DNA of 64,000 nucleotides from Candidatus Spongiisociaceae bacterium (GTDB taxonomy: Bacteria > Actinomycetota > Acidimicrobiia > Spongiisociales > Spongiisociaceae): NCBI GenBank assembly GCA_965262915.1, contig OZ253564.1, positions 2,176,001 to 2,240,000 on the forward strand, written 5' to 3'. Under the pieces are notes generated by a model that worked only from the letters and a program-made list of their open reading frames with translations, had not been told where the DNA came from and did not search any database. Positions 21,420-46,644 of this stretch are shown in pieces (position 1 is the stretch's first letter; each line of letters starts with the position of its first letter). Position numbers and translations under genes: made by a program.

Positions 21420-22413
21420 TGGTAGGCGCCGCCGGCCCTCCCCGCGATGGGAGCCACGACGGGGTAGTCGAAATACGTCGTGGTCACGAGGTCGTGGAGC
21501 CGGCGGCAGGCGCTGCGGATCTCCCGGAGCAGAGCATCCCGGTCGGTCGCGGCAGGCCACTTGTTGTCGACGAGATGGCGGATGTGCTCGGATTGGCGCC
21601 GGGTCCGGTCGGTGGACGCGGCGTCGGGTCCTGGTCCGACCGCGACCAACTCGCTGCACAACTCCGAGACCGACAGACTGAGGGAGTCGGGGAGTCGGGG
21701 AGTTGGGGGTTGGTCACCAGCAGGTCCAGGACCCGGTCGGGTTCGATGGCGGCGCTGGAGGCGCGGTTGTAGGCCTCGAACGCGTAGTAGTGGCGTAGCA
21801 GGCTCGTCCAGTAGGCGTCAGCCGGGACCTCGAACAGCCGGACCGCGGCTATCTGGGCGATCAGCAGGGAAGACGAGAGCTGGGCGCGCTCAACGTAGTT
21901 GCCCAACTGCACGAAGTGCCACGCGTCGTCTCGGTACAGGGTGGATGAGGTCACACCCCGGAACGTATCGATCTCGGCAGCCGTCTCGGCGTAGAAGTTC
22001 TCGGGAGATCTGAGCCAGATGTCCTGTATCGCCATGCCCTGGAGCCGTAGGTGGGACCGGTTGAGGCAGGTCCACATCTCGGCCGAGATGTGGTGGCGCA
22101 TCTGGCGTGCGTTCTCCCGACCCTGGGCGAAGCAGGTACGGATCGAATCCGGGTTGGTGGGCTCGAATGTGAGGTCGTCGGTGAGCGTGAAGGAGTCGGC
22201 CAGGGTGTACAGGTCGTCGGTGTCGAGTTCCAGTGCACCGGCCTGCGGTTGCCGCTCGAAGGCGCCGTATATCCGGTGCCAGCCGAAGTAGATGTCCCGG
22301 GGCGGGCTTTCCACGAGGGACTCGGTCTGCTGCTTGAGGAGCCGGGATAGGTGGCGGGCCCTCTCCAAGTAGCGGCCCATCCAATACAGCCCGGCGGCGC
22401 TTCTGGACAGCAT
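21416..22413 (-). pseudogene. Alpha-E domain protein (DUF403), frameshifted by an 8-bp tandem duplication
   Basis: MLSRSA..LYWMGRYLERA, RENAR..R..IS.EMW, G..VERA; GGGAGTCG duplicated at 21682-21697; removing one unit joins ...NPQLPDSLSLSVSELCSEL... to the 21416-21661 frame. Confidence 0.85.
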
Positions 22414-22419
22414 CGCGGA

Positions 22420-23853
22420 TCAGTCCTCCAGCACCCAGAAGTCCTTGCCGCCTCCGCCCTGGCTGGAATTGACAACCAGGCTGCCGCGGCGAAGGGCGAT
22501 ACGGCAGAACGCTCCGGGCACCATTCGGGTCTCGCGCCCGGACAGGATGAAGGGACGCAGGTCTACGTGGCGAGGCTCCAGGCGACCTTCGATGAGGCAG
22601 GGCGCACGCGACAGGGCGAGCGTGGGTTGGGAGATGTAGTCGGCGGGATCCGCCCTCAGCCGCATCGCGAAGTCGTTGCGCTCGGCAGGCGTCGAGTGGG
22701 GGCCGATCAGCATCCCGTACCCGCCCGACTCGCCCACCCGCTTCACCACCAGACCTTCCAGGTTGTCGAGGGTGTACTCGAGGTCCTCGGGGCGCCTGCA
22801 GAGGTAGGTCTCGACGTTCTCGAGCAGCGGTTCGGCACCCAGGTAGTAGCGGATCATGTCTGGAACGAAGGCGTAGAGGCTCTTGTCGTCCGCTACGCCG
22901 GTTCCGGGGGCGTTGACCAGCGACACGTTTCCCAGGCGGGCGGCATGCAGCAGACCGGGCACACCGAGCAGGGAATCGGGACGGAAGACCAACGGATCCA
23001 GGTAGTCGTCGTCGACCCGCCGGTAGATCACATCCACCCGTTTCAGCCCCGAGGTGGTACGCATGTACACGTAGCCGTCTTCGACCAGGAGATCGCGGCC
23101 CTCCACCAGGTCGGCGCCGATCTGGCGGGCCAGGAACATGTGCTCGTAGAAAGCAGAGTTGTAGATACCCGGGGTAAGCAGTGCCATCGTCGGATCCGAG
23201 GGGCCCTCGGGCGCGAGTTCGCGCAGGGTCTGGGCGAGGACGAGCCCGTAGTTCTCGATGTCTCGCACCCGGGAACGGCGATAGAGGAGCCGATGGGCGG
23301 ACTTGGTTGCCTTCCGGATGGCAAGCATGTACGACACTCCGGAGGGCACGCGCAGGTTGTCCTCGAGGACGCGGAACCCGTCGGTGGTGCGAACCAGGTC
23401 GGTCCCGCAGACCGCCGCCCACACGCCGTGGGGAGCCTTGAAGCCCCGCATCTCAAGGCGGTATTGCGGGCAGTCCCGGACCATGTCCGCGGGTATCACC
23501 CGATCGGCGATGATCCGGGCTTCGCTGTAGATATCCTCGAGGAACCGGTTGAGGGCGGATAGACGTTGTTCCAGACCGGCTGTGAGGTCACTCTATTCCG
23601 TTGCGGACATCACGCGAGGTATGCAGTCGATGGGGATGATTCGCTCGGTTTCCTCGTCGTCGCCGTAGACGGTGAACGTGATTCCTTCGTTGGTGAAGGA
23701 GCGGGTGACCCACTCCCCGATGGCGCCCAGGTCGGGAGGCGACAAGCGCCCTAGTGTGTCGTAGAGCTCCTGAGAGTGGCGATGCGGCGAGCCATCGACC
23801 CCGAACATCTCGTCGTATATGGCCGCGTCAAGGTCGTAGCTGTCGAAGTTCAA
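22420..23853 (-). pseudogene. Circularly permuted type-2 ATP-grasp protein with in-frame TAG
   Basis: YDEMF...GITFTVY...ERIIP.D.IPR..SATE*SDLTAGLEQRL.ALNRFL.DIY...VLEDNLRVPSGVSY...VNSSQGGGGKD.WV; TAG at 23593-23595 where Trp is expected. Confidence 0.88.
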
Positions 23854-34816: not shown

Positions 34817-34942
34817 GGCCGGTAGAGTAACGGGGTCCTGTCCCTCGGGAGATCGAGACGGCATTGTTCTTCCCGGCTCGGACCGTCGGGGATCCCGGAC
34901 TCCTTTCCGGCTACCTGCTCGGCCTGCGATGATGCTTCCCAT

Positions 34943-37135
34943 ATGAACATCGAATTCGACGGAACCGAGGTTGCGTTCGACGAGGGCGACTCGGTGTTCA
35001 CCGCCGTGTGGCGGGCCGGGTTGCGACCCTGGGGCGGATGTCTGTGCGCGGAGGGGGACTGTCCCTACTGCCTGATCACCGTGGACGGTATCTCGTACCG
35101 GCGCGCCTGCCGGACACCCGCCGAGGACGGTGTGTCTGCTGTCTCCCATCCCGGCGACGGTTACCCACCCCTGCCGTCGGGTCACGGGGAGACGGAGGTC
35201 GGCTTCGAGATGATCCACTGCGACACGGTCGTGATCGGGCAGGGCCGTTCGGGTAGGGCGGCTGCTTCGAGAGCAAGGGAGCAGGACCGCCGGGTGGTCA
35301 CCCTCGACTCACGAATGGGGCGCCACGCGGTGGGCGTGTACCCGGGTCCCGAAGTGGTCGCCCGGACCCCGAAAGGCATGGCCCGGATCTTCTGCGTCGA
35401 CGTCGTGGTCGCTACCGGTGTGGTCGAGGTCCAGCCGGTCTGCCCGGGTAACCAACTGGCCGGCATATTGACCAAGCGGGCGTCCGAGCGGCTGGCGGCT
35501 GCTGGAGTCGGGCTGGGGAGGGCGGTGGCGGTCGGTTCTCCCCCGGAGGGGGTCGAGTGCGAGCGGTCCGAGGGAAGGCTGGTGCGGTTCGAGGGGGGAG
35601 GATCGGTCCGGGCGGTGGTGACGGCCGATGACCACACGGGTGTCGAACGCGTCTATCACTGCGACACCGCGGTGGTGGGGTTGGGCACCGGGCCGCGCGA
35701 CACTCTCGCCCGGATGGCATCGGGTATCCCAGGCGTGCGGACGGCGGGAGGCGCGGCCGGCGATCTCGAGCAGCCGCCCGTTCCGGAGGTGGGCATCGTC
35801 TGTCCGTGCTCGGGTGTCACCGTGGACGATCTGCATTCCGTGTGGGACCGGGGATTTCACGAGTTGGAGCTGATCAAACGGTCCACATTGGCCGGAACCG
35901 GTGTGTGCCAGGGTGCGGTGTGCATGCCGCACGTTCGCAGTTTCGTAGCCGCCGGCGATGCGGAATTGCCGCCATCCTTCACAGCGCGCCCGGTGGCCAC
36001 CCAGATCACTATGGGGGAGGCGGCAGCCGGTTGGTACCACCCCGCCGATCGCCGGACCGCCCTCCACGAGCAGCATCTGGCGTTGGATGCCACGATGGAG
36101 CGGGTCGGCGGTTGGTACCGGCCCTGGACCTACGGTGATCCCGACGGCGAGTACTGGGCGGTGCGGGGCATGGTGTCGATCTGCGACGTGAGCACCCTGG
36201 GCAAGTTCCTCGTCTCGGGTCCGGACGCGGTGGAGTTCCTGGAGCGTACCTACCCGACCCCCATCGCCACCATCCGGCCCGGTCGAGCCAAGTACGTGCT
36301 GGCACTCGACGAGCGGGGTTATGTCTTCGACGACGGAATCGTGTGCCGGGAGGCCGAGACCCGGTTCTTCCTCACCTTCAACTCGGCGGGGGCCGACCAC
36401 GCGGAGATGTGGTTGCGTGATTGGGCCGAGACGTGGCGGATGGACGTCCGGATCCTTGACCGGACCGCCTCGTGGGGGGCGATCAACGTCACGGGTCCGT
36501 TGTCCGACGAGCTCCTCGCCAGAGTCGGGGTGACCGATCCGCCGTCCTTCATGAGCCATAGACCGATGGAGGTGGCCGGCGTGGCCTGCCGGGTGCTACG
36601 GCTGAGCTTCACTGGCGAGCGCTCCTACGAGCTTCACCACCAGGCAGGAGACTCGGTCCGTTTGTGGTCATCCCTGATGGAAGGGGGGAGCCGCCTCGGG
36701 GTACGGCCCCACGGCCTGGAAGTGCTGGAGGAGCTGCGCCTCGACAAGGGCCACATCCTGGTGGGGGTGGACAGTCTCCCCGACTCCACCCCTCGCCGTC
36801 TGGGTCATGACTGGGCGGTTCGGATGGACAAGGGGGATTTCGTCGGCCGCCGAGCGGTGTCCAGGACCTCGCGGTCGCCCTTGGACAAGCTCCTGGTGGG
36901 CCTGGAGATGGAAGGCTCGCCCCCTCCGCGCGGCGCCATCATGCGGGTGGGAGGGGACTATGCGGGATTCGTGACCTCCGGCGCCCGCTCCCGGGTGCTC
37001 GACAAGTCGATCATGCTGGCCTGGCTGTATGCGATCGACGACAGGTTCGCTGATGAGGTCGCCGTCGACGGACGGACCGCCCGGCGGGTCCCGCTGCCCT
37101 TCTACGACCCGGAGCACACCCGTGCCCGTGGCTGA
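34943..37135 (+). CDS. Sarcosine oxidase alpha-like fusion (2Fe-2S, short flavin domain, BFD-like Cys cluster, GcvT domain)
   Basis: CLCAEGDCPYC...RAC; VCPCSGVT...ELIKR...GTGVCQGAVC; DVSTLGKF, SFTGERSYEL, LRLDKGH. Confidence 0.82.
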   Translation: MNIEFDGTEVAFDEGDSVFTAVWRAGLRPWGGCLCAEGDCPYCLITVDGISYRRACRTPAEDGVSAVSHPGDGYPPLPSGHGETEVGFEMIHCDTVVIGQGRSGRAAASRAREQDRRVVTLDSRMGRHAVGVYPGPEVVARTPKGMARIFCVDVVVATGVVEVQPVCPGNQLAGILTKRASERLAAAGVGLGRAVAVGSPPEGVECERSEGRLVRFEGGGSVRAVVTADDHTGVERVYHCDTAVVGLGTGPRDTLARMASGIPGVRTAGGAAGDLEQPPVPEVGIVCPCSGVTVDDLHSVWDRGFHELELIKRSTLAGTGVCQGAVCMPHVRSFVAAGDAELPPSFTARPVATQITMGEAAAGWYHPADRRTALHEQHLALDATMERVGGWYRPWTYGDPDGEYWAVRGMVSICDVSTLGKFLVSGPDAVEFLERTYPTPIATIRPGRAKYVLALDERGYVFDDGIVCREAETRFFLTFNSAGADHAEMWLRDWAETWRMDVRILDRTASWGAINVTGPLSDELLARVGVTDPPSFMSHRPMEVAGVACRVLRLSFTGERSYELHHQAGDSVRLWSSLMEGGSRLGVRPHGLEVLEELRLDKGHILVGVDSLPDSTPRRLGHDWAVRMDKGDFVGRRAVSRTSRSPLDKLLVGLEMEGSPPPRGAIMRVGGDYAGFVTSGARSRVLDKSIMLAWLYAIDDRFADEVAVDGRTARRVPLPFYDPEHTRARG

Positions 37136-37529
37136 TCGGTTCGAGCGCCTGGCCGCCACCAGGGTCGTGGCCGACCCGGCGGCTCTCGATGCGGTGGAGG
37201 CTCCGGAAGGCGGTTACGTGATGCGGCCGGCGCCGGACGATCTCCTGGTGCTGCCCGCCGTCAGCCGGATCGATGTTGCCGACCACCATGCCATCATCGA
37301 GCCTGAAGAGGGGTTCTCCGGAGCGTGGTTCGACGAACCGGAGTGGCCTCGGTTGCAAGCGGTTTGTGGGTGGCAGTTCCCCCGGCGCCGTCCGGCCTTC
37401 GCCCAAGGCCACATCGCTGGCATACCGACCAAGCTGTTCTTCACCGAGGGCCGGCTGCTGGTCCTGGTTCCGACGGTTGTGGCACACCATCTGGCCGACC
37501 GCCTCCAGACCGGCGGTCGGCAGGTATGA
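37128..37529 (+). CDS. Small protein, probable sarcosine oxidase gamma-like subunit
   Basis: GTG overlaps the alpha stop and its stop overlaps the beta ATG; R.APDD.LV and ....AHHLADRL patterns; called mainly from operon position. Confidence 0.55.
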   Translation: MADRFERLAATRVVADPAALDAVEAPEGGYVMRPAPDDLLVLPAVSRIDVADHHAIIEPEEGFSGAWFDEPEWPRLQAVCGWQFPRRRPAFAQGHIAGIPTKLFFTEGRLLVLVPTVVAHHLADRLQTGGRQV

Positions 37530-38740
37530 ACGAGTTCATCGAAGCCCATATAGCTCTCACCTGGCAGGATCTGCGGTCTTCGTACGACGTGGTGATCGTG
37601 GGGGGAGGCGGCCACGGTCTCTCGACCGCCTATCATCTCGCAACCCGGCATGGCATCACCAACGTTGCGGTACTGGAACGCGGCTACATCGGATCCGGCA
37701 ATTCCGGTCGCAACACGACGGTCATCAGAGCCAACTACGGCATTCCCGAGGCGGTCCGGTTCTACCAGCGGAGCGTCGATCTCTATTCCAGACTGGAGGA
37801 GGAGACGGGGCGCTGGATAATGCACGATCGCAAGGGCCTGCTCTGGCTGGTCCACGGCGTGCCGGGTACGCGCAACGAGCGGGCCCGCTCGATCATCAAC
37901 CAGGCCTTCGGAGCGGACACCGAGTACGTGACGGCTTCGGAGGTAGGCGAGATCTGCCCGGAGGTGGATCTGAATGCAGGGGGCGGCGAGTACCGCGTTC
38001 TGGGTGGTTCCTACAGCCCCCACGCCGCTACCGCCCGCCACGACCGGGTGGTATGGGCGCTGGCCGAGGGCGCCATGAAGCGGGGCGTGCACGTTCACCA
38101 GCGCACCGCGGTGACCGGGCTCATCAAGTCCGGGAACCGGGTCACGGGAGTACTCACCGACCGGGGACCGGTGTCGGCGGGCATCGTGGTGAGCGCTGTG
38201 GGGGGCCACGTGTCGTCGCTGGCTGCCATGGCCGGCGTGCGGTTACCCATCCGAACCCACCCGCTGCAGGCGTTCGTCACCAACCATTACGCCCGGGCCT
38301 TCCGTCCCATAGTCGCATCGGTGGATCTGGGCTTCTACGTCAGCCAGACTGCCCGGGGAGAGATGCTGGTGGGTGGCGGAATCGACCTGCAGCCGAGCTA
38401 CTCGTACCGTTCCAGCTACGAGTTCCTTTCCTTCTGCTCCCTGTCCGCGGTCACCCTGCTGCCGTTCCTTCGTGACCTCAAAGTCCTGCGCCAGTGGACG
38501 GGGGTGTGTGATATGCCGATCGATATGTCCCCGATCATGGGACGGACCGGAGTGGACGGGTTCCTGGTCACCACCGGCTGGGGAACCTGGGGTTTCAAGG
38601 CGATTCCCGCAGGGGGCGAGCAGATGGCGGAGTTGATCGCCACCGACCGTACCCCCGAGCTGATCGCCCCGTTCTCCCTGAGCCGGTTCAAGTACGATCG
38701 GCTGATGTTCGACCCCGGCTCGACGGGAACCACGCACTGA
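37526..38740 (+). CDS. Sarcosine oxidase beta-like FAD-dependent oxidoreductase
   Basis: YDVVIVGGGGHGL.TAY.LA..HGITNVAVLE.G.IG.GNSGRNTT.IR.NY; GWGTWGFKA.P. Confidence 0.9.
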   Translation: MNEFIEAHIALTWQDLRSSYDVVIVGGGGHGLSTAYHLATRHGITNVAVLERGYIGSGNSGRNTTVIRANYGIPEAVRFYQRSVDLYSRLEEETGRWIMHDRKGLLWLVHGVPGTRNERARSIINQAFGADTEYVTASEVGEICPEVDLNAGGGEYRVLGGSYSPHAATARHDRVVWALAEGAMKRGVHVHQRTAVTGLIKSGNRVTGVLTDRGPVSAGIVVSAVGGHVSSLAAMAGVRLPIRTHPLQAFVTNHYARAFRPIVASVDLGFYVSQTARGEMLVGGGIDLQPSYSYRSSYEFLSFCSLSAVTLLPFLRDLKVLRQWTGVCDMPIDMSPIMGRTGVDGFLVTTGWGTWGFKAIPAGGEQMAELIATDRTPELIAPFSLSRFKYDRLMFDPGSTGTTH

Positions 38741-38967: not shown

Positions 38968-39004
38968 GCGGGCGGACCGGTGCGTGTCCCCTCTCGCCCA
39001 GACC

Positions 39005-39032
39005 GTCATACGCAGTATTCTTCGTGTATGAC
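39005..39032 (+). promoter_or_regulatory. Candidate TA autoregulatory operator and leaderless promoter
   Basis: GTCATAC...GTATGAC inverted repeat brackets the TATTCT -10 box (39016-39021) and the ATG. Confidence 0.6.
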
Positions 39033-39279
39033 AGTATTGAGTTTTCGGATGGCGGCTGAAGAGATAGCCGAGGTGGGCCGTTGGGCAGACCGGCTGGGCG
39101 TCGGGAGGTCGGAGTTCATACGCGAGTCGCTGCGCCGCCATCTCAGGTGGCTGGCGTCGGCGGAGGACGCTGATCGGTGGGAAGAGGAGCCGCTGAGCGC
39201 AGGGGAGTCGGCGCTTGCAGAGATCGCCGACTGGGGAGTGGCAGAGGATTGGTCGGATTGGGACGATGAGACAAGGTGA
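39028..39279 (+). CDS. RHH/CopG antitoxin (MazE5-like)
   Basis: MTVLSFR...WA.RLGV.RSE..R..LRRHL...IADWG.AEDWSDW. Confidence 0.85.
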   Translation: MTVLSFRMAAEEIAEVGRWADRLGVGRSEFIRESLRRHLRWLASAEDADRWEEEPLSAGESALAEIADWGVAEDWSDWDDETR

Positions 39280-39574
39280 GATCTGGTTCGCGGCTACTCC
39301 CGGCGGAGACCGTCCGGTTCTCGTGCTGACCCGCGATCCGGTTGCCGACCGTATCGGTTCCGTGGTGGTGGCATCGCTCACCAGGACCCGGCGCGGTCTC
39401 GTGTCGGAGTTGTTCTTGACTGCGCACCGGGACGGGATACCCACGGACTGCGTGGTGAACTTCGACAACATCCACACGATCCCGCGCTCGGCCCTCCGCC
39501 GTTTCGTCGCGCAGCTGCCCTCGGATCGGATCATCGAAGCCTGCAGGGTCCTCCGCGACGCCTTGGGGTGTTGA
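39266..39574 (+). CDS. mazF: PemK/MazF toxin (MazF5-like)
   Basis: GEIWFAATPGGDRPVLVLTRDPVADRI..VVV..LTRT.RGLVSEL, CVVNFDNIHT. Confidence 0.9.
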   Translation: MRQGEIWFAATPGGDRPVLVLTRDPVADRIGSVVVASLTRTRRGLVSELFLTAHRDGIPTDCVVNFDNIHTIPRSALRRFVAQLPSDRIIEACRVLRDALGC

Positions 39575-39578
39575 ACTT

Positions 39579-40493
39579 CTACGAGATCCCGGCCACCAGC
39601 GACCGGCACACCCCGTCGAGGATGTCGTGGCCGGTCACGGTGATCTCACTCAGCCCGAGAATCCGAAGCGAGGTCTCGGCCACGACGGTGCCGCCGACGA
39701 TGATCGGCGCCCGTTCGGGGTTGAGGGAGGGAATGGCCCGCTTCTCCCCCAGGGTGAGCGAGCCCAGCCACGTGACCATGGCCTCCACGTCCGCGAGGCG
39801 CAGGGTGGCTCCTTCCACTGCCGGGGAGTCGTAGGTGTCGAGGCCGAGGTGCATGGCGGCCAGGCTGGTCCAGGTCCCGGCCGTTCCCATCGCTTTGTCT
39901 CGGCGCGGCAGGTCCGCGGCTCCCATCACACGGGAGGCTTCCCGGCGGGCTGCCGCGAGGTCGCCGGGGGTGGCGGGATGGTTCGGCAGGCATCGCTCGG
40001 TGAGCCGGACGGATCCGATGTCGGTCGACACCCCTCCCTGGTCGGTGACGATCTCGGTGCTTCCTCCACCGACATCGACCACGACCGTGGCGGCGGGGTC
40101 GGGAGCGGATCCGGTTGCTCCGGCGAACACGAGGACCGCCTCCTCCTCGCCTCCGATGATGTCGGGCCGGAACCCCAGGGCGCGCCGGGCTGCCTCGACG
40201 AGCTCGTCCCGGTTGGCGCCGTCGCGCGCCGCCGAGGTCGCCACCGCCCTGGCCGCCTGCACACCCGACTCCCTGATCCGGCTGCCATAGACCGCCAGGA
40301 CGCGGGTGGTGCGCTCCATGGCTCCTGCTGACAGCCGCCCCGAAGTGTCCACGCCCCTACCCAGACCGGTTACCGTCTCGATGCGCTCCACGTCCACGAG
40401 CCCGACCTCGGTCACGTCGGCGATCAGGAGGCGGGTGGAGTTGGTGCCCATGTCCACCGCCGCGACCCGTGTCGCGGCGCGGCGTGCGCTCAA
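39579..40493 (-). CDS. ppx: Ppx/GppA family phosphatase
   Basis: AAVDMGTNSTRLL, ATSAARD, I.G.EEA...F.GA, VDVGGGSTE, IGSVRLTER; TTG start overlaps the upstream stop. Confidence 0.92.
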   Translation of the reverse strand: MSARRAATRVAAVDMGTNSTRLLIADVTEVGLVDVERIETVTGLGRGVDTSGRLSAGAMERTTRVLAVYGSRIRESGVQAARAVATSAARDGANRDELVEAARRALGFRPDIIGGEEEAVLVFAGATGSAPDPAATVVVDVGGGSTEIVTDQGGVSTDIGSVRLTERCLPNHPATPGDLAAARREASRVMGAADLPRRDKAMGTAGTWTSLAAMHLGLDTYDSPAVEGATLRLADVEAMVTWLGSLTLGEKRAIPSLNPERAPIIVGGTVVAETSLRILGLSEITVTGHDILDGVCRSLVAGIS

Positions 40494-41497
40494 GAGTCGA
40501 ATGCCGGCGCGGCAGGCCCCTTGCGGACGCAAGCCGCCCACACCGTTTCGTAGTGGTCGACGTCGTAGGAGTCGATGTGGGGGAGCACCATCATCTCCCA
40601 TGCGCGCCGCAGCGGGTCCTTGCGGGTGCCGAACATCATCAGGCCGGCAGGGATCCGGTCCAGCACGGTACGCAGGCTGATCGGGGTCTCGACCCGGGTG
40701 CCCGGGTCGGTGGAGAGGAACGAGCTGTTGATCTCGGTGGCCAGGCGGCTGATGTGCTTGACGTAGGGGTCTCGCATCGAGGGATAGCGGCGGACCAGCA
40801 TCGCCTCGATCTCCGAGGAGTCGGGGAACTCCTTTTCCCAGATCACCCACCGGTCGGCGAAGGCCTTGTTGAGGGTCTGGGTGCCGGCGTAGTCGCGCAG
40901 GTCGGTCGGGTTCATGGTTCCGAAGAGGCGCACGTCGTCGCGCAGGGCGACGGACTCGCCGGTGGGGAGGTCGAGGGCCGAGTAACGGTCCAGCAGTCCG
41001 TGGAGGGCGAAGAGGGTCTCGGCGCCCGCCGCGTTGAGCTCGGAGAGGTTGACCAGCGCCGGTCCCCGGAGCGCCCGGGTGATGTCTCCGTCCTCCCAGC
41101 GGCTCTCGGTGCCGCCCATACCGTCCCCGTAGAGCTTCACCGAGCCGATGAGGGTGATGTCCCGTACCTCACCGGTGAGAGGCACCCGGTAGTAGGGGAG
41201 CCGGAGGAGGGCGGCGAACTGCTCGATGTCGTGGTCCTTGCCGGTTCCCATGTGACCCCGTACCGCCAGGTGGAGAGGAACGGTCCCCTCGGGCTTCTCC
41301 CGGCGGATCTTCTCCACTTGGGCGAACCGGTAGAGCATTCCCACGTCGACGTAGTTGGGGTCCGGTTCGGGGATCTTGGCGACGCGCTGGTGATGGTCCC
41401 GCAACCCCACCTCGGGCACCACGAGGGTTTCGAGCTCGATGGGCCGGCCCGCCCCGGTCGGGTCGGTGAAGGTGACTGCTCGCGGGCGTTCAGGCAC
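40490..41497 (-). CDS. MoxR/CbbQ/NorQ-like AAA+ ATPase with atypical Walker motifs
   Basis: GHMGTGKD, LIG, W.DG.ITRALR, LVNLSELN, TMNP..YAGT..LN.AFADRW, ISLR; GTG at 41497 overlaps the vWA stop. Confidence 0.85.
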   Translation of the reverse strand: MPERPRAVTFTDPTGAGRPIELETLVVPEVGLRDHHQRVAKIPEPDPNYVDVGMLYRFAQVEKIRREKPEGTVPLHLAVRGHMGTGKDHDIEQFAALLRLPYYRVPLTGEVRDITLIGSVKLYGDGMGGTESRWEDGDITRALRGPALVNLSELNAAGAETLFALHGLLDRYSALDLPTGESVALRDDVRLFGTMNPTDLRDYAGTQTLNKAFADRWVIWEKEFPDSSEIEAMLVRRYPSMRDPYVKHISRLATEINSSFLSTDPGTRVETPISLRTVLDRIPAGLMMFGTRKDPLRRAWEMMVLPHIDSYDVDHYETVWAACVRKGPAAPAFDS

Positions 41498-43610
41498 TGC
41501 GGCGCTCCGCGGGTCGGATGGTCGGGCTTTGTCGCGCGCTTTCCCGTCCGGCACGGGACCACCAGGTGTCCTCCCCGTGCAGGGCCAGCCCGCGGCAGAG
41601 CGCCATCCTGACCCCCGCCACCATCGAGTTGGCCAGCTCGTCGGGCCGCGAGATCACCTGGTGGTAACGGTAGGCGGCGACGACGGTGTCGTCCCCCACC
41701 CCGATCCCCAGTACCGTGGTGCCATTCCCGTCCACCTCCTCGACCGATCGGGCCAGCGCCTCCACTGATCCCCGGGTCATCCCGTCGGCCAGCACCACCA
41801 GTACCCGCACATGAGCGCCGTGGTTGGCGAGGCGCTCGGCGGCGTAGGTGACGTTGAACTCGTCGACGTTGGCGGCCTTCTCGAAGAGCGACACCGGCGG
41901 CGTCTCCCTGGGCGCCCGGCGGGCCTCGAGGCCGGCCTCTCCGGTCTTGGCCGCGGTCCAGAATAGCCCTGCCAGGACATCGTCGGACCGCCTCCACGGT
42001 TCGTTGAAACTCGAGAGCAGGTAGTGGTTGACCGTCGAGGTGAGCCGGTCGGCGGCCGTGCCGTGGGACTGCCGCAACTCGCTGATGGCCGCGGTCCGGC
42101 GGCGCGAGTAGGTCCACTCGGTGTCGTCGACACGGGCCGCGAACGCCCTGTTGAAGAGGGCCACCTCGAAGTCGACCTGGAGTTCGTTGCACATGGCCGC
42201 CAGCGTCCAAGCCCCCAACATTGCGGCGGCCAGGCCCCACGGACGCCGGTCGCGGGGCGCCGCAAGGCGGCGGGGTTGCAGCATGGACGCCGAACCGTCC
42301 ACCAGCACGCTCACCGCATACGACCGGCGCGTCGAGATGGAGCGGCGTTCGAACATGCGCTCGTATAGGCCGCCTCCGAGCAGGAGCGCCGCGTGAGGTG
42401 AGAGGTCTCCCGCGTCGAACCCCGACCGCAGGCCGCGCCGTTGGTTGGCCACGAACAGGGGATAGAGCTCGCCCGACACATGGCGCTGGTCGACACTCCA
42501 CTCACGGGCTGCTTCCTCCAGGGCTGTCCTACCACGGGCCGCGAAGCGACGGAACGGTTCGGGTACCCTGCCCACCGCCAGCTTTCCGCTCTGGCCGGTC
42601 GGCAGGTACACGACAGGGGCCTGGCTGACCCTGAGCAGCTGGTCCGTACCCTCGCCCGATGCCCGGTCCAGCTCGGCCGGTCTGCCGTTCGGGCCGGTCT
42701 GCCGCTCGGCCCCGCGGCGGGTCTCGCGGTAGCGCTCCGCGTCCTGGACGATCGGCGAGAACAGGCGCACCCGGTCGAGCCCCTCCGTCATCGCCTCAGC
42801 CTGGGCCTCCTCACGCTCGCGTTGCCTCGAGGGTTGCTCGTCGGGTCGGCTCCCGTAGACGAGACCGTGTACCTCGGCGACCGTCAGCAGCCGCATCGCC
42901 AGGTCGGCCACTTCCCAGGGGTCGTCGGCTGCAGCAGCCTTCTCGAGGATTCCCATGGCGTCGCGCCAGGCGGCGCCGGAGCGGGCGTCGAGGCGGCGCT
43001 CGAGTAGGCCGTCGTCCAGATACCCGCCCACCGTCATGAAGCACGCCACCGCGAAGCGGGCGAGCGGGCCGTGACGGCTCAGGGCGCCTGTGAGGGAGGC
43101 CCGGTAGAGATCCTCGAGAACCGAGCGGGCGCCCGGATAGTACGCCAGGCCCTGCCGTTCCTGGCGGGCGTCCTCGATGGCGAAGAACAGCGCCTCTGCC
43201 GGTGGACCACCCGCCCGGTCCAGAGCTTCGAGAAGGGTGAGCTCTTCCTCAGCGGGAGAATCGGCGCTGTCCGGTAGCCAGTCGCCGGGGAGGGATCGGC
43301 GCTCATCGAAGTCCGACGAGACCAGATGCACGACCTCGTGGAGGGCGGAAGCCAGAGCCGTCTCCTCGGGTGTCACCGGCGCCCGCCGGCCGTAGGCGGC
43401 CTGGAACAGGCCGGGGTCGATCACCACCTCGTGTTCGGAGGCCCGGCTCGAAGCGCCCAGCACCACGCGCAACTCCTCCTGTCCGGTCAGCGTGCGAGCC
43501 ACTCTGGTGACGGCGCTCGCCACGCGCTGGTAGCGCTCCACGACCGCCTCGATGGCCCGCCCCTCCGGAGGGAGGATCTCGGTGAGGAGCGATCTATCCC
43601 TTGGTACCAC
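41490..43610 (-). CDS. vWA-domain protein with N-terminal HExxH (CobT/NorD-like architecture)
   Basis: ALHEVVH, AIEDARQE; G.DAG.L, VSVLVDGSASM (MIDAS DxSxS), VLVVLADG, VLGIGVG. Confidence 0.82.
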   Translation of the reverse strand: MVPRDRSLLTEILPPEGRAIEAVVERYQRVASAVTRVARTLTGQEELRVVLGASSRASEHEVVIDPGLFQAAYGRRAPVTPEETALASALHEVVHLVSSDFDERRSLPGDWLPDSADSPAEEELTLLEALDRAGGPPAEALFFAIEDARQERQGLAYYPGARSVLEDLYRASLTGALSRHGPLARFAVACFMTVGGYLDDGLLERRLDARSGAAWRDAMGILEKAAAADDPWEVADLAMRLLTVAEVHGLVYGSRPDEQPSRQREREEAQAEAMTEGLDRVRLFSPIVQDAERYRETRRGAERQTGPNGRPAELDRASGEGTDQLLRVSQAPVVYLPTGQSGKLAVGRVPEPFRRFAARGRTALEEAAREWSVDQRHVSGELYPLFVANQRRGLRSGFDAGDLSPHAALLLGGGLYERMFERRSISTRRSYAVSVLVDGSASMLQPRRLAAPRDRRPWGLAAAMLGAWTLAAMCNELQVDFEVALFNRAFAARVDDTEWTYSRRRTAAISELRQSHGTAADRLTSTVNHYLLSSFNEPWRRSDDVLAGLFWTAAKTGEAGLEARRAPRETPPVSLFEKAANVDEFNVTYAAERLANHGAHVRVLVVLADGMTRGSVEALARSVEEVDGNGTTVLGIGVGDDTVVAAYRYHQVISRPDELANSMVAGVRMALCRGLALHGEDTWWSRAGRESARQSPTIRPAERRSA

Positions 43611-44595: not shown

Positions 44596-44770
44596 CCGCC
44601 CCATTCTACGAGGTCGGCGGACCATTGATACCGGGTGCCGGAAGCCGGGGCGACCCGTGCGGATGCGCACGGGGGTACCCTCAGGATTCCTATGGGCGCC
44701 GACACCCCGGAGGCGGAGGTACGTCCGTGCCCGGCACTCTATGATGAACGGGACGAGCGGCTGGTATACG

Positions 44771-46165
44771 ATGTTCACCGAGATGCGTGTACGCAACTTC
44801 AAGTCCTGGGAGGACAGCGGACTGATCCGGCTGGCGCCCGTTACCGGGCTCTTCGGAACCAACAGCTCGGGCAAGACGAGCCTCCTTCAGGCCTTGCTGC
44901 TTCTGAAGCAGACCACCGAGTCAGCCGATCGGAAGCAGGTGCTCAACCTCGGAGACAAACGGTCTCCTACGTCTTTGGGTCTAATCGGAGACGTGATACA
45001 CGGTCACGATTCGAAGTCACGTCTCGAATTCGAGTTCTCGTGGCGCAGCATGGAGCCTGTCGAGGCTTCCGACCCTGCCAATCCGGGGTCCAACCTTTTC
45101 AGCGAATCCGAGCTGTCTTTTCGTACACTTGTTGCAGTCCGGAACGGGACACAACGCGTCGAGGAGTTCGCATACAAGACAGGTGCTGCGCGGGTCGAAT
45201 TCTCTCGCCGACAAAGACAGAAGCGTAAGAGCCCGGAGTACGATCTGAAGGCGACCGTAAACGGCGATACCGGCTACCTGAAGCGGATCCAGGGTCGGGC
45301 GTGGGGTCTACCGCCGCCCGTCAAGTGCTACGGCTTCCCCGACGAGGCATTCGCCTACTTCCAGAACTCTGCTTTCGTCAACGCGTTCGAGTTGGCGCTC
45401 GAGCGACAGTTCGGCAACTCGTTGTTCTATCTCGGTCCGCTACGCCAGAACCCGGCCCGCTCATACCGGTGGCAAGGCTCGACTCCTTCTAGCGTCGGAG
45501 CGGAGGGTGAGCGCGCAATCGAGGCACTCCTGGCATCCGGGCGCCGACCGAGGAAGGAATGGATCGCGCGGGAACTCAAGTCGAACGGGCACGCCAAGAA
45601 GCTGTTCCTTGTCGAGGACGTGGTGTCTCAATGGCTTCGGGAGATGAAGCTGGTTCGATCCTTCTACCTGGAGCGAATAGCCGAAGATGCCGATATCTAC
45701 CGAGTACGGATCAAACGCTCGTCCGATTCGGCCGAGGTCCTGCTTCCTGACGTGGGATTCGGTGTATCGCAGGTGCTCCCCGTCCTCGTTCTTCTCGCCT
45801 GTGTTCCCAAGACTTCGGTGGTGATACTCGAACAGCCGGAACTGCACCTTCACCCGGCGGTACAAGCCGCGCTGGCCGACGTCATCCTCGAGACCGCACG
45901 CGTGGGTCGTGCCCAGGTCATCGTTGAGAGCCATAGCGAGTACTTACTGAGGAGGCTCCAACGCAGGGTTGCCGAGCGTGCGGTCTCGAAGGAGGACATC
46001 GCGCTGTATTTCTGCGATCACGATGATCGTCGATCGAGTATCGAACGTCTCGATCTCAACATGTTCGGTCAGATCGACAACTGGCCATCCGGATTCTTCG
46101 GTGACCCCATCGGGGAAGCGGTTGCGATGGTCGAAGCAGGGGCGAAACGTGCAGCAATCCCATGA
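44771..46165 (+). CDS. ABC-type ATPase (AAA_21/AAA_15-like) with DUF3696-like C-terminus
   Basis: NFKS, GTNSSGKTS, YLGPLR, DVGFGVSQVLP, ILEQPELHLHP, VESHSE, GQIDNWPSGFFGD. Confidence 0.88.
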   Translation: MFTEMRVRNFKSWEDSGLIRLAPVTGLFGTNSSGKTSLLQALLLLKQTTESADRKQVLNLGDKRSPTSLGLIGDVIHGHDSKSRLEFEFSWRSMEPVEASDPANPGSNLFSESELSFRTLVAVRNGTQRVEEFAYKTGAARVEFSRRQRQKRKSPEYDLKATVNGDTGYLKRIQGRAWGLPPPVKCYGFPDEAFAYFQNSAFVNAFELALERQFGNSLFYLGPLRQNPARSYRWQGSTPSSVGAEGERAIEALLASGRRPRKEWIARELKSNGHAKKLFLVEDVVSQWLREMKLVRSFYLERIAEDADIYRVRIKRSSDSAEVLLPDVGFGVSQVLPVLVLLACVPKTSVVILEQPELHLHPAVQAALADVILETARVGRAQVIVESHSEYLLRRLQRRVAERAVSKEDIALYFCDHDDRRSSIERLDLNMFGQIDNWPSGFFGDPIGEAVAMVEAGAKRAAIP

Positions 46166-46644
46166 GGCATTCTGTGATCGACACCAATGTTTTGGTTGTC
46201 GCGAGCGGTCGCGCCGATCACGCGGACGACACGTGTCGCCTCCGTTCTGCGAGAGCTCTACTCGAAGTGGAGAGGAAACGCTCGCTCGTGCTGGATTGGG
46301 GCTGGGAAATCCTCCGGGAGTATTCGAGACACGTGAGCGTCGTTGGCGAACCTGAGGCAGGGGACCGCTTCTTCCAATGGGCGGCCTCATCCGCCCACAT
46401 ACGCCGTGTCAGTATCAACGAACACCCCGATCGCGCCTACCGCGAATTCCCGAGCGACCCACGGCTCGAGCGATTCGACTGGAGTGCTCGCAAGTTCGTG
46501 GCTGCGACGGTCTCGTCGGGCACGGAAGATACCGAACTGGTCAACGCTGTCGACTCCGACTACTCCCTCCATCGGACCGCTTTGAAGGACGCAGGCGTGT
46601 CGGTGAACGAACTATGTCCGAGTCTGATTGAAAGAACCCGGTAG
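46162..46644 (+). CDS. PIN-like domain protein coupled to the ATPase
   Basis: VIDTNVL.VA, I..EY, FD.S.RKFVA, NAVDSD; ATGA overlap with the ATPase stop. Confidence 0.7.
   Translation: MRHSVIDTNVLVVASGRADHADDTCRLRSARALLEVERKRSLVLDWGWEILREYSRHVSVVGEPEAGDRFFQWAASSAHIRRVSINEHPDRAYREFPSDPRLERFDWSARKFVAATVSSGTEDTELVNAVDSDYSLHRTALKDAGVSVNELCPSLIERTR

Follow-up and report, generated by a model that had tools for sequence, protein, structure and literature searches.

A CobS/CobT-like AAA+/vWA gene pair with exchanged Walker A and Walker B residues in Candidatus Spongiisociaceae and related Acidimicrobiia

Introduction

Can a P-loop ATPase remain a working motor when the two residues at its Mg site have changed places? 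This question is raised by a locus in the genome of a Candidatus Spongiisociaceae bacterium (Actinomycetota, Acidimicrobiia; assembly GCA_965262915.1). The stretch of DNA that was analysed, hereafter the window, comprises 64,000 nucleotides of contig OZ253564.1 (positions 2,176,001 to 2,240,000 of the forward strand), and all coordinates refer to it. Its minus strand carries three overlapping genes, which encode a partner protein with an HExxH motif and a vWA domain, an AAA+ ATPase, and a Ppx/GppA protein. The ATPase has Asp at the position of the Walker A Ser/Thr and Ser at the position of the Walker B Asp. The Walker Ser/Thr–Asp pair is treated as almost invariant across P-loop nucleoside triphosphatases (PMC9599734). 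According to this source, the Ser/Thr following the Walker A lysine (position K+1) binds Mg directly and shares a hydrogen bond with the Walker B Asp; the latter holds Mg-bound water molecules, and the pair has been credited with a direct catalytic role. The exceptions named in its passages on the pair are Gly at K+1 in nucleoside monophosphate kinases and Glu in place of Asp in Walker B. A full-text literature search returned neither a GKD-type Walker A motif nor a swapped pair; a supplementary figure on exceptions in PMC9599734 may bear on this point.

Results and Discussion

The Walker motifs of the ATPase

The ATPase gene (40490-41497, minus strand) is an open reading frame (ORF) of 335 amino acids starting from GTG, a start which fits the length of most close homologs. 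The DNA reads GGT CAC ATG GGA ACC GGC AAG GAC at 41257-41234, which translates into GHMGTGKD and departs from the canonical Walker A consensus GxxxxGK[S/T]. Together with the two residues that follow, the motif occupies 41228-41257 (minus strand) and places D88, H89 and D90 at K+1, K+2 and K+3. The Walker B region, N150-L-S152-E153 (41039-41050, minus strand), lies within LVNLSELN, and the codon of Ser152 is TCC at 41044-41042. In place of the canonical hhhhD(E), the ATPase reads LVNLSE, with Ser at the position of the Mg-site Asp and Asn at the hydrophobic position two residues before it. The catalytic Glu is retained.

An annotated CobS from a Sphingomonas plasmid was used as the reference for a profile alignment with hhalign. 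D88 falls on the Walker A Ser of CobS and S152 on its Walker B Asp. In the same alignment E153 corresponds to the catalytic Glu, N196 of the TMNP motif (40912-40910, minus strand) to sensor 1, R216 of the FADRW motif (40852-40850) to the Arg finger, and R276 (40672-40670) to sensor 2. Two preprints on CobS, in the parts that describe its motifs, list them in the same order. The initial annotation of the locus had reported the Walker A Asp and the Walker B Ser, together with an intact catalytic Glu, sensor 1 and Arg finger. The DNA reading and the CobS alignment prove the two exchanged residues to be real, and the catalytic residues, which align to those of CobS and are invariant in the family, are indeed intact. 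The AAA+ catalytic set of Glu, sensor 1 Asn, Arg finger and sensor 2 Arg is present; activity itself is a prediction.

Conservation and uniqueness of the exchange

The motif GHMGTGKD was found in 120/120 closest database homologs (73-98% identity), which have Ser (119) or Ala (1) at the Walker B site. A set of 87 orthologous loci, taken from 80 species genomes and 7 more distant genomes and reaching down to 55% identity, gave the same picture: K+1 is Asp in 87/87, and the Walker B site is Ser in 86 and Ala in one. One of the 87 loci reads GHMGCGKD. Since it is shared by the closest homologs, none of which is canonical at K+1, and by the orthologous loci, the exchange is not a quirk of this assembly. 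In the 83 loci that could be parsed, D88 is encoded by GAC (52) or GAT (31), and S152 by TCC (41), TCG (25), TCA (10), TCT (6) or AGC (1); synonymous codons have thus replaced one another at both positions. The homolog and locus sets overlap and go back to one ancestor, and they are therefore counted as one evolutionary event. Together they show a single ancient substitution event maintained by selection, and not repeated co-variation.

The ATPase is under strong constraint. In an alignment of 88 family sequences, columns conserved at 98% or more make up 38.5% of the ATPase versus 12.7% of the partner. K87 and E153 are invariant, and N196 and R216 are invariant in an alignment that includes distant relatives (A3). 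R276 is present in at least 98% of the 88 family rows; across the A3 rows its share is 90% or more, close to invariance.

The single record with Ala at the Walker B site suggests that this position must be small and uncharged and need not be strictly hydroxylated. In this record (locus L056, protein P0089) the stretch before Walker B is also altered (…LSLNNLAELNA), which may be a real variant or an error of the metagenome-assembled genome.

A search of 1.84 billion representative proteins returned one full-length cluster at 50% identity for the ATPase family, plus fragments. Below this cluster there is a gap, followed by midasin-like giants and a few proteins of 330-420 amino acids with 27-33% identity. 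From 209 relatives, including 80 phage CobS-like proteins, 470 AAA_5 domains covering both motifs were scored; this sample consists of the best 150 representative hits and 80 viral loci and does not stand for all AAA+ proteins. The Asp/Ser pair occurs in 7/470 domains, all seven from the ATPase family, and in 0/463 of the non-family domains. Among the latter, K+1 is T or S in 455/463 and the Walker B site is D or E in 460/463. The exchange is accompanied by three further family-specific residues, His at K+2, Asp at K+3 and Asn at Walker B-2. The relatives have L, M, V or I at K+3 in 411/463 domains and L, V, I, C or F at Walker B-2 in 458/463. Since helix 1 of P-loop folds is packed against the Walker B strand, we infer that the residues at K+3 and Walker B-2 lie opposite one another.

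An acidic residue right after the Walker A lysine is also found in the sigma-54 enhancer-binding proteins, active AAA+ proteins of another clade. Their motifs, as given in PMC8871633, are GESGTGKE for Walker A and …LFLDE for Walker B; the Walker B Asp is kept, and the pair is not exchanged. A separate deviation was seen in P0190, a multi-domain AAA_5 protein of 2600 amino acids, in which K+1 is Asn and Walker B is a canonical D-E in four of the four domains scored.

The initial annotation had envisaged an unusual AAA+ subfamily working with a vWA partner and had taken the two changes for a compensatory exchange rather than decay. The former is borne out by a distinct and tightly conserved AAA_5 subfamily with an HExxH-vWA partner encoded beside it (80/80 and 7/7 loci). 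The latter stands in part. The exchange is real, family-wide and under purifying selection; however, co-variation cannot be shown, because the exchange arose only once (7/470 rows, all of this family), and the change is wider than two residues.

The ATPase and its partner form a distant CobS/CobT-like module

The ATPase matches the AAA_5 family PF07728 with an E-value of 1.2e-11 (45.3 bits versus a cut-off of 22). Against the CobS equivalog TIGR01650 it scores 48.5 bits, far below the cut-off of 558.55. The hhalign comparison with the annotated CobS gave a probability of 99.7% and an E-value of 2.2e-26 over residues 35-329. When an ATPase profile including distant relatives was compared with solved structures, the matches were midasin AAA domains (E 3.5e-113), CobS (1.5e-40), CbbQ (3.1e-36) and NorQ (5.2e-35). 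Among phage protein families (PHROG), the ATPase matches phrog_249 (E 9.3e-25), and the partner matches phrog_1576 and phrog_17276. A FastTree phylogeny was computed from 238 columns of 96 ATPase sequences, leaving out duplicates and viral ORFs that scored less than 60 bits, and was rooted with 10 midasin domains. In this tree, whose support values were not read, the family sits on a long stem outside a clade that unites canonical CobS with most of the phage copies; no donor or order of events was drawn from it. A distant AAA_5 homolog (24.6% identity over residues 73-259), annotated as AAA family ATPase or NirQ, is carried by large plasmids of enterobacteria, about 1100 in number and for the most part typed as conjugative.

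The partner gene (41490-43610, minus strand) is an ORF of 706 amino acids. Its product has an N-terminal HExxH domain (residues about 1-250), a charged linker with a finger region (about 250-428) and a C-terminal vWA/MIDAS domain (about 429-680). No Pfam or NCBIfam family matched the protein at E<=0.01, and its structure was modelled with AlphaFold 2 (AF2) from an alignment of 38 orthologs, with a mean predicted local distance difference test score (pLDDT) of 82.1. The HEVVH motif (H91, E92, H95; 43326-43340, minus strand) lies on a predicted helix spanning residues 81-98, as expected of the active-site helix of a zincin metallopeptidase. H91, E92, H95, E151, D167 and Y169 are invariant in 38/38 aligned orthologs, which reach down to 27% identity; by this conservation E151 is a candidate third metal ligand. 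SprT-like matches are weak and limited to 3/38 orthologs (best E 0.031).

The MIDAS motif D438-G-S440-A-S442 (DGSAS; 42285-42299, minus strand) is intact, and D438, S440 and S442 are invariant in the same alignment. The ATPase is thus adjoined by a vWA protein with the DxSxS signature, as in MoxR-type pairs. In structure comparison, the C-terminal domain matches the NorD VWA domain (Z 17.9, root mean square deviation 7.0, 233 aligned residues) and the MIDAS domain of Rea1/MDN1 (Z 15.7 and 15.3). The vWA domain is related to that of CobT by profile search (E 3.1e-4) and by hhalign (E 2.3e-9); the latter comparison, of the partner profile with one canonical CobT, is significant over the vWA domain only. 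CobT_C (PF11775) matches 19/38 orthologs weakly (best E 7.9e-5), PF06213 reaches an E-value of 0.36 on the window protein, and for the N-domain the protein atlas yielded only a lead. Two low-confidence stretches of the model, residues 392-403 and 415-427, would sit where CobT and NorD are described to carry the pore finger.

On these alignments, the ATPase and its partner are best described as a distant CobS/CobT-like module. Homology of the ATPase to CobS extends along the entire protein and takes in the N-terminal extension as well as the lid, and the partner has the CobT layout of an N-domain, a linker of about 90 residues or more, and a vWA domain with MIDAS. The differences are considerable. 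The Walker pair is S/D in CobS and D/S in the window ATPase; HExxH is absent from 2/2 canonical CobT proteins checked and invariant in the window partner, of which only the vWA domain aligns significantly to CobT; and a CobN gene was not found in the window genome. The initial annotation had called the ATPase MoxR-like. This label is not supported, as the module stands nearest to CobS/CobT and to CobS/CobT-like pairs of phages rather than to MoxR proper.

The closest architectural relatives of the module are these phage pairs, known from cyanophages, actinophages and jumbo phages, in which the genes for a CobS-like ATPase and an HExxH-vWA protein are also adjacent. We found 80 viral loci with a CobS-like ATPase gene followed by that of an HExxH-vWA-type partner. 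HExxH is located at residues 63-130 in 57/58 of the phage partner ORFs of at least 500 amino acids, and most of the phage partners retain the D-S-S of the MIDAS at the matching profile positions. When the whole partner was compared with predicted viral structures, it matched phage CobT-like/vWA proteins over 729-800 columns (best E 2.6e-14), including those of the Gordonia phages GMA3 and GMA7 and the Thermus phage P74-26. A jumbo-phage MoxR-vWA pair with an N-terminal metallopeptidase domain is described by Iyer et al. 2021 (PMC7824862), who propose a role in virion assembly and processing. In contrast to the window module, however, 80/80 phage ATPases have the canonical K-T and D-E, the ATPase gene comes first in phages and the vWA gene first in the window, the identity is only 24-32%, and the window module is a chromosomal core gene pair.

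NorQ/NorD, CbbQ/CbbO and midasin (Rea1/MDN1) share with the module the AAA_5 clade, the vWA/MIDAS domain as the best structural match, and the general logic of a motor with a MIDAS adaptor. Their Walker motifs are canonical or merely degenerate, but never D/S. To our knowledge, none of these systems contains an HExxH domain. The type of module is therefore known, and what is new is the inverted and extended Mg-site signature.

Predicted docking of the partner on the ATPase

The ATPase was predicted in complex with residues 1-300 of the partner. This pair obtained an interface score (ipSAE) of 0.78, the best control 0.00. The mark applied to this score is reached by 116/157 solved complexes and by 2/215 mismatched pairs; these counts apply only approximately, since the prediction was made with own alignments. 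The docking runs share at least 85% of their contacts, with a partner pLDDT of at least 85. In the models, the lid and the C-terminal tail of the ATPase (residues 248-267 and 314-326) contact residues 29-45, 82-90 and 157-164 of the partner, and the interface adjoins the HExxH helix. A contact reported between the CobT N-domain and the small domain of CobS resembles this N-domain-to-lid docking, and the positive score may therefore reflect the likeness of the pair to CobT and CobS.

Distribution of the module

The ATPase was detected in 94/201 genomes of the class in a search at E<=1e-30, including 48/48 genomes of the window's order and 45/47 of a sister family with genomes of 0.7-1.1 Mb. With this query and threshold it was not found in the other families sampled among the 201 genomes, a result that does not prove its absence there. 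Among the small genomes of about 1 Mb, the ATPase retains 55-58% identity, and the partner has diverged down to 27-30%. The partner gene lies directly upstream of the ATPase gene in 80/80 loci and in 7/7 distant loci. The vWA and ATPase genes most likely form a vertically inherited two-gene module.

Proposed mechanism

We propose that the module is an active motor for the remodelling or maturation of a client and that its Mg site has been rewired; in this motor, a CobS-like AAA+ protein would work with a CobT-like adaptor. We assign a probability of roughly 60% to this reading. Homology, pairing, conservation and distribution are observed and the docking is predicted by modelling, whereas ATP hydrolysis, the roles of the ligands, the assembly of a ring and a chaperone or processing function are proposed. 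By analogy with CobST, NorQD and CbbQO, the ATPase would form a ring. The N-domain of the adaptor would dock on the lid domain of the ATPase, its vWA finger would enter the pore of the ring, and the MIDAS site would hold an acidic group of the client. The client would then be remodelled or matured and possibly cleaved by the HExxH domain, which may serve as an anchor and perhaps as a processing peptidase. At the nucleotide site, Asp88 at K+1 would replace the Ser/Thr hydroxyl as a direct Mg ligand, and Ser152 would assume the second-shell role of the Walker B Asp. Such an exchange would preserve one negative charge and a similar packing volume, and His89, Asp90 and Asn150 would complete a new buried polar network. 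That the ATPase is a working hydrolase is argued from the conserved Glu, sensor and finger residues.

Several points weigh against this proposal. The single-sequence AF2 model of the ATPase has a pLDDT of 33.6, too low to be of use for its nucleotide site. Other P-loop enzymes hydrolyse slowly or not at all once the Walker B Asp is lost (PMC9599734), so that a slow or switch-like ATPase is possible. The lone Ala locus and the lone Ala protein are the same record; from this ortholog, the hydroxyl at the Ser site may be dispensable. H89, D90 and N150 have changed as well, and a mere exchange of ligands may fall short as a description. Searches of solved structures with the whole partner model (Foldseek pdb, VIA wide) gave lists filled by vWA matches; this does not mean that the N-domain lacks a known fold, and its zincin fold is putative. 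The conserved gene context offers no candidate for a client, and the RNA evidence, which consists of contigs only, is weak.

It is rather unlikely that the ATPase is instead a slow or non-hydrolysing nucleotide switch, that is, an ATP-gated scaffold for the vWA partner. In many P-loop nucleoside triphosphatases, activated hydrolysis is reduced when either the Walker B Asp or the Ser/Thr at K+1 is mutated (PMC9599734). Midasin-type relatives pair degenerate with active AAA domains (K+1 R or H together with Walker B S-N in 2/470), and Ala occupies the Walker B site in one ortholog. Yet Glu, sensor 1, Arg finger and sensor 2 have been conserved while the partner drops to 27% identity; the degenerate midasin domains are without these residues (for example, N at Walker B+1 and, in one of them, I as the finger), and the charge at the Mg site is conserved, not lost. 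Another reading takes the rebuilt pocket (D88, H89, D90, N150, S152, E153) for the binding site of a different or second metal, which would tie the motor to the sensing or delivery of metal, as would suit the part that CobST, NorQD and MoxR systems play in metal insertion. In the sequence, five polar residues specific to the family are grouped about the Mg site, and two of these positions are normally hydrophobic. His and Asp are typical transition-metal ligands. The relatives CobST, NorQD and CbbQO are described as working in metal insertion. However, the proximity of K+3 and Walker B-2 is derived from the general P-loop fold and not from a structural model of the site, and N150 is replaced by Ser in some orthologs; we consider this reading improbable.

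The remaining alternatives concern the module as a whole. The initial annotation saw in the coupled ppx gene a hint at a polyphosphate or stringent-response link, and a module acting with Ppx in polyphosphate or (p)ppGpp metabolism would fit the 4-nt TTGA overlap in the window and the presence of ppx after the ATPase gene in 21 loci of the closest relatives. All of these are within the loci L001-L022. The gene was not seen at this position in L023-L080, a few of which have under 1 kb of sequence beyond the ATPase gene, or in the seven distant loci (0/7), and in four loci checked a LOG-family gene follows the ATPase instead. In addition, the window ppx is the sole Ppx-GppA match in the 5.06 Mb genome, and hence appears to be a relocated housekeeping gene. 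The link is therefore not upheld and such a function is distinctly improbable. A phage-derived or conflict system, acting as a virion-assembly chaperone or as a vWA-MoxR defence, is suggested by the phage CobS-like and HExxH-vWA pairs, by the jumbo-phage pair of this kind (Iyer et al. 2021, PMC7824862) and by a HEC-03 candidate defence pair 1 kb away. It is nevertheless very improbable, as the module has a conserved chromosomal place beside dapB and is universal in two lineages, no PADLOC match was obtained for the vWA, ATPase or ppx genes, the gene order is the reverse of that in phages, and the family forms its own long branch in the tree, as read without support values. The identity of the module with the CobST motor of aerobic cobaltochelatase was also considered, since among named cellular families none comes closer than CobS and CobT. 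It was rejected as hardly conceivable: CobN (PF02514) gave 0 matches in the single-contig genome (5.06 Mb, 96% complete), and the control search matched 5/14 genomes. The low TIGR01650 score, the lack of HExxH in the two canonical CobT proteins and the occurrence of the module in genomes of roughly 1 Mb point the same way. The initial statement that no nor, cbb or cobN client is present thus holds for CobN at the level of the genome; for the other two, the window contains no nor or cbb context, and no search was aimed at their clients.

Significance of the exchanged pair

The fuller reading, that the family carries an anciently fixed inversion of the Walker A Ser/Thr–Walker B Asp pair, with a five-residue polar rebuild, in an otherwise complete motor that still hydrolyses ATP, is tentative, and we give it somewhat less than an even chance. 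Should the motor be active, the Walker pair would be interchangeable in its polarity, and the family would be a natural test of models that assign separate roles in a proton relay to the K+1 hydroxyl and the Walker B carboxylate. It is also conceivable that a second or different metal is bound in the rebuilt pocket, which would link the handling of metal to the activity of the motor. An entire family of orthologs in which the pair is exchanged, purifying selection is strong and the rest of the active site is intact offers a natural test system. The module is, moreover, a conserved gene pair in a widespread lineage that comprises sponge symbionts, according to the record titles, and bacteria with very small genomes, and its role connects to the unexplained CobS/CobT-like genes of many phages.

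Gene layout and the ppx neighbour

The three genes of the locus overlap. The partner and ATPase genes share the 8 nt GTGCCTGA (41497-41490, minus strand), and the ATPase and ppx genes share the 4 nt TTGA (40493-40490, minus strand). The three-gene layout, both overlaps and the coordinates of both Walker motifs agree with the initial annotation, as checked by ORF prediction and DNA reading. A sponge metatranscriptome run contained three short contigs on the vWA gene. Two runs guessed to be RNA contained fragments on all three genes, including one contig which spans the vWA/ATPase junction; among these contigs, none spans the ATPase/ppx junction. These contigs show neither transcription nor its absence.

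The ppx gene (39579-40493, minus strand) is an ORF of 304 amino acids starting from TTG and encodes a Ppx/GppA phosphatase of the short form. Its product matches PF02541 with an E-value of 1.2e-43 (150.1 bits versus a cut-off of 27). Against TIGR03706 it scores 203.4 bits, below the cut-off of 307, and the substrate may therefore be polyphosphate or pppGpp. Where ppx follows the ATPase gene (21/80 loci), it is mostly within about 30 nt, and in L021 and L022 the distance is about 1.3 kb. The sequences of L005 and L025 stop too soon for a call, and a few other loci have less than 1 kb of downstream sequence. A check of the vWA-AAA-ppx synteny had been proposed: its vWA-AAA part is kept in 80/80 and 7/7 loci and its ppx part is not. 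Being the only Ppx of its genome, the protein is, from this gene-order pattern, most simply a housekeeping copy that, in the sponge-associated clade, has moved beside the module without belonging to the machine. In this clade it is probably co-transcribed with the module, of which it is a recent and incidental neighbour.

Neighbouring genes

Upstream of the module, the window contains M16 peptidase, dapB, dapA, rnj and ftsK genes. The MDMPI, BtpA and Lhr genes lie about 6 kb downstream, past sarcosine-oxidase-like genes and a toxin-antitoxin pair. In the distant orthologous loci, the module is located between dapB or an M16 peptidase gene on one side and LOG, MDMPI and BtpA genes on the other. 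The sarcosine-oxidase-like block (34826-38737, plus strand) encodes a GCV_T/2Fe-2S fusion and a DAO-type oxidoreductase and separates the module from MDMPI-BtpA. As MDMPI-BtpA closely follows the module in the distant relatives, the block looks inserted in the window lineage. Directly downstream of ppx, at 38980-39574 (plus strand), a small ORF overlaps a gene for a PemK/MazF-like toxin (PF02452, E 1.9e-12). By its arrangement this pair looks like a type II toxin-antitoxin system, and a MazF homolog is found at the same place in L002 only.

A candidate two-gene defence system of lower GC content (0.63) lies at 44657-46644 (plus strand), between the rhomboid and M16 peptidase genes. Its first gene encodes an AAA_21/AAA_15 ATPase with DUF3696 (PADLOC HEC-03B, E 2.2e-140), and the second a protein of 160 amino acids (PADLOC HEC-03A, E 1.6e-28). 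Farther away, at 21487-23592 (minus strand), a circularly permuted ATP-grasp gene (PF14403) stands beside an alpha-E gene (PF04168), which together represent a conserved pair.

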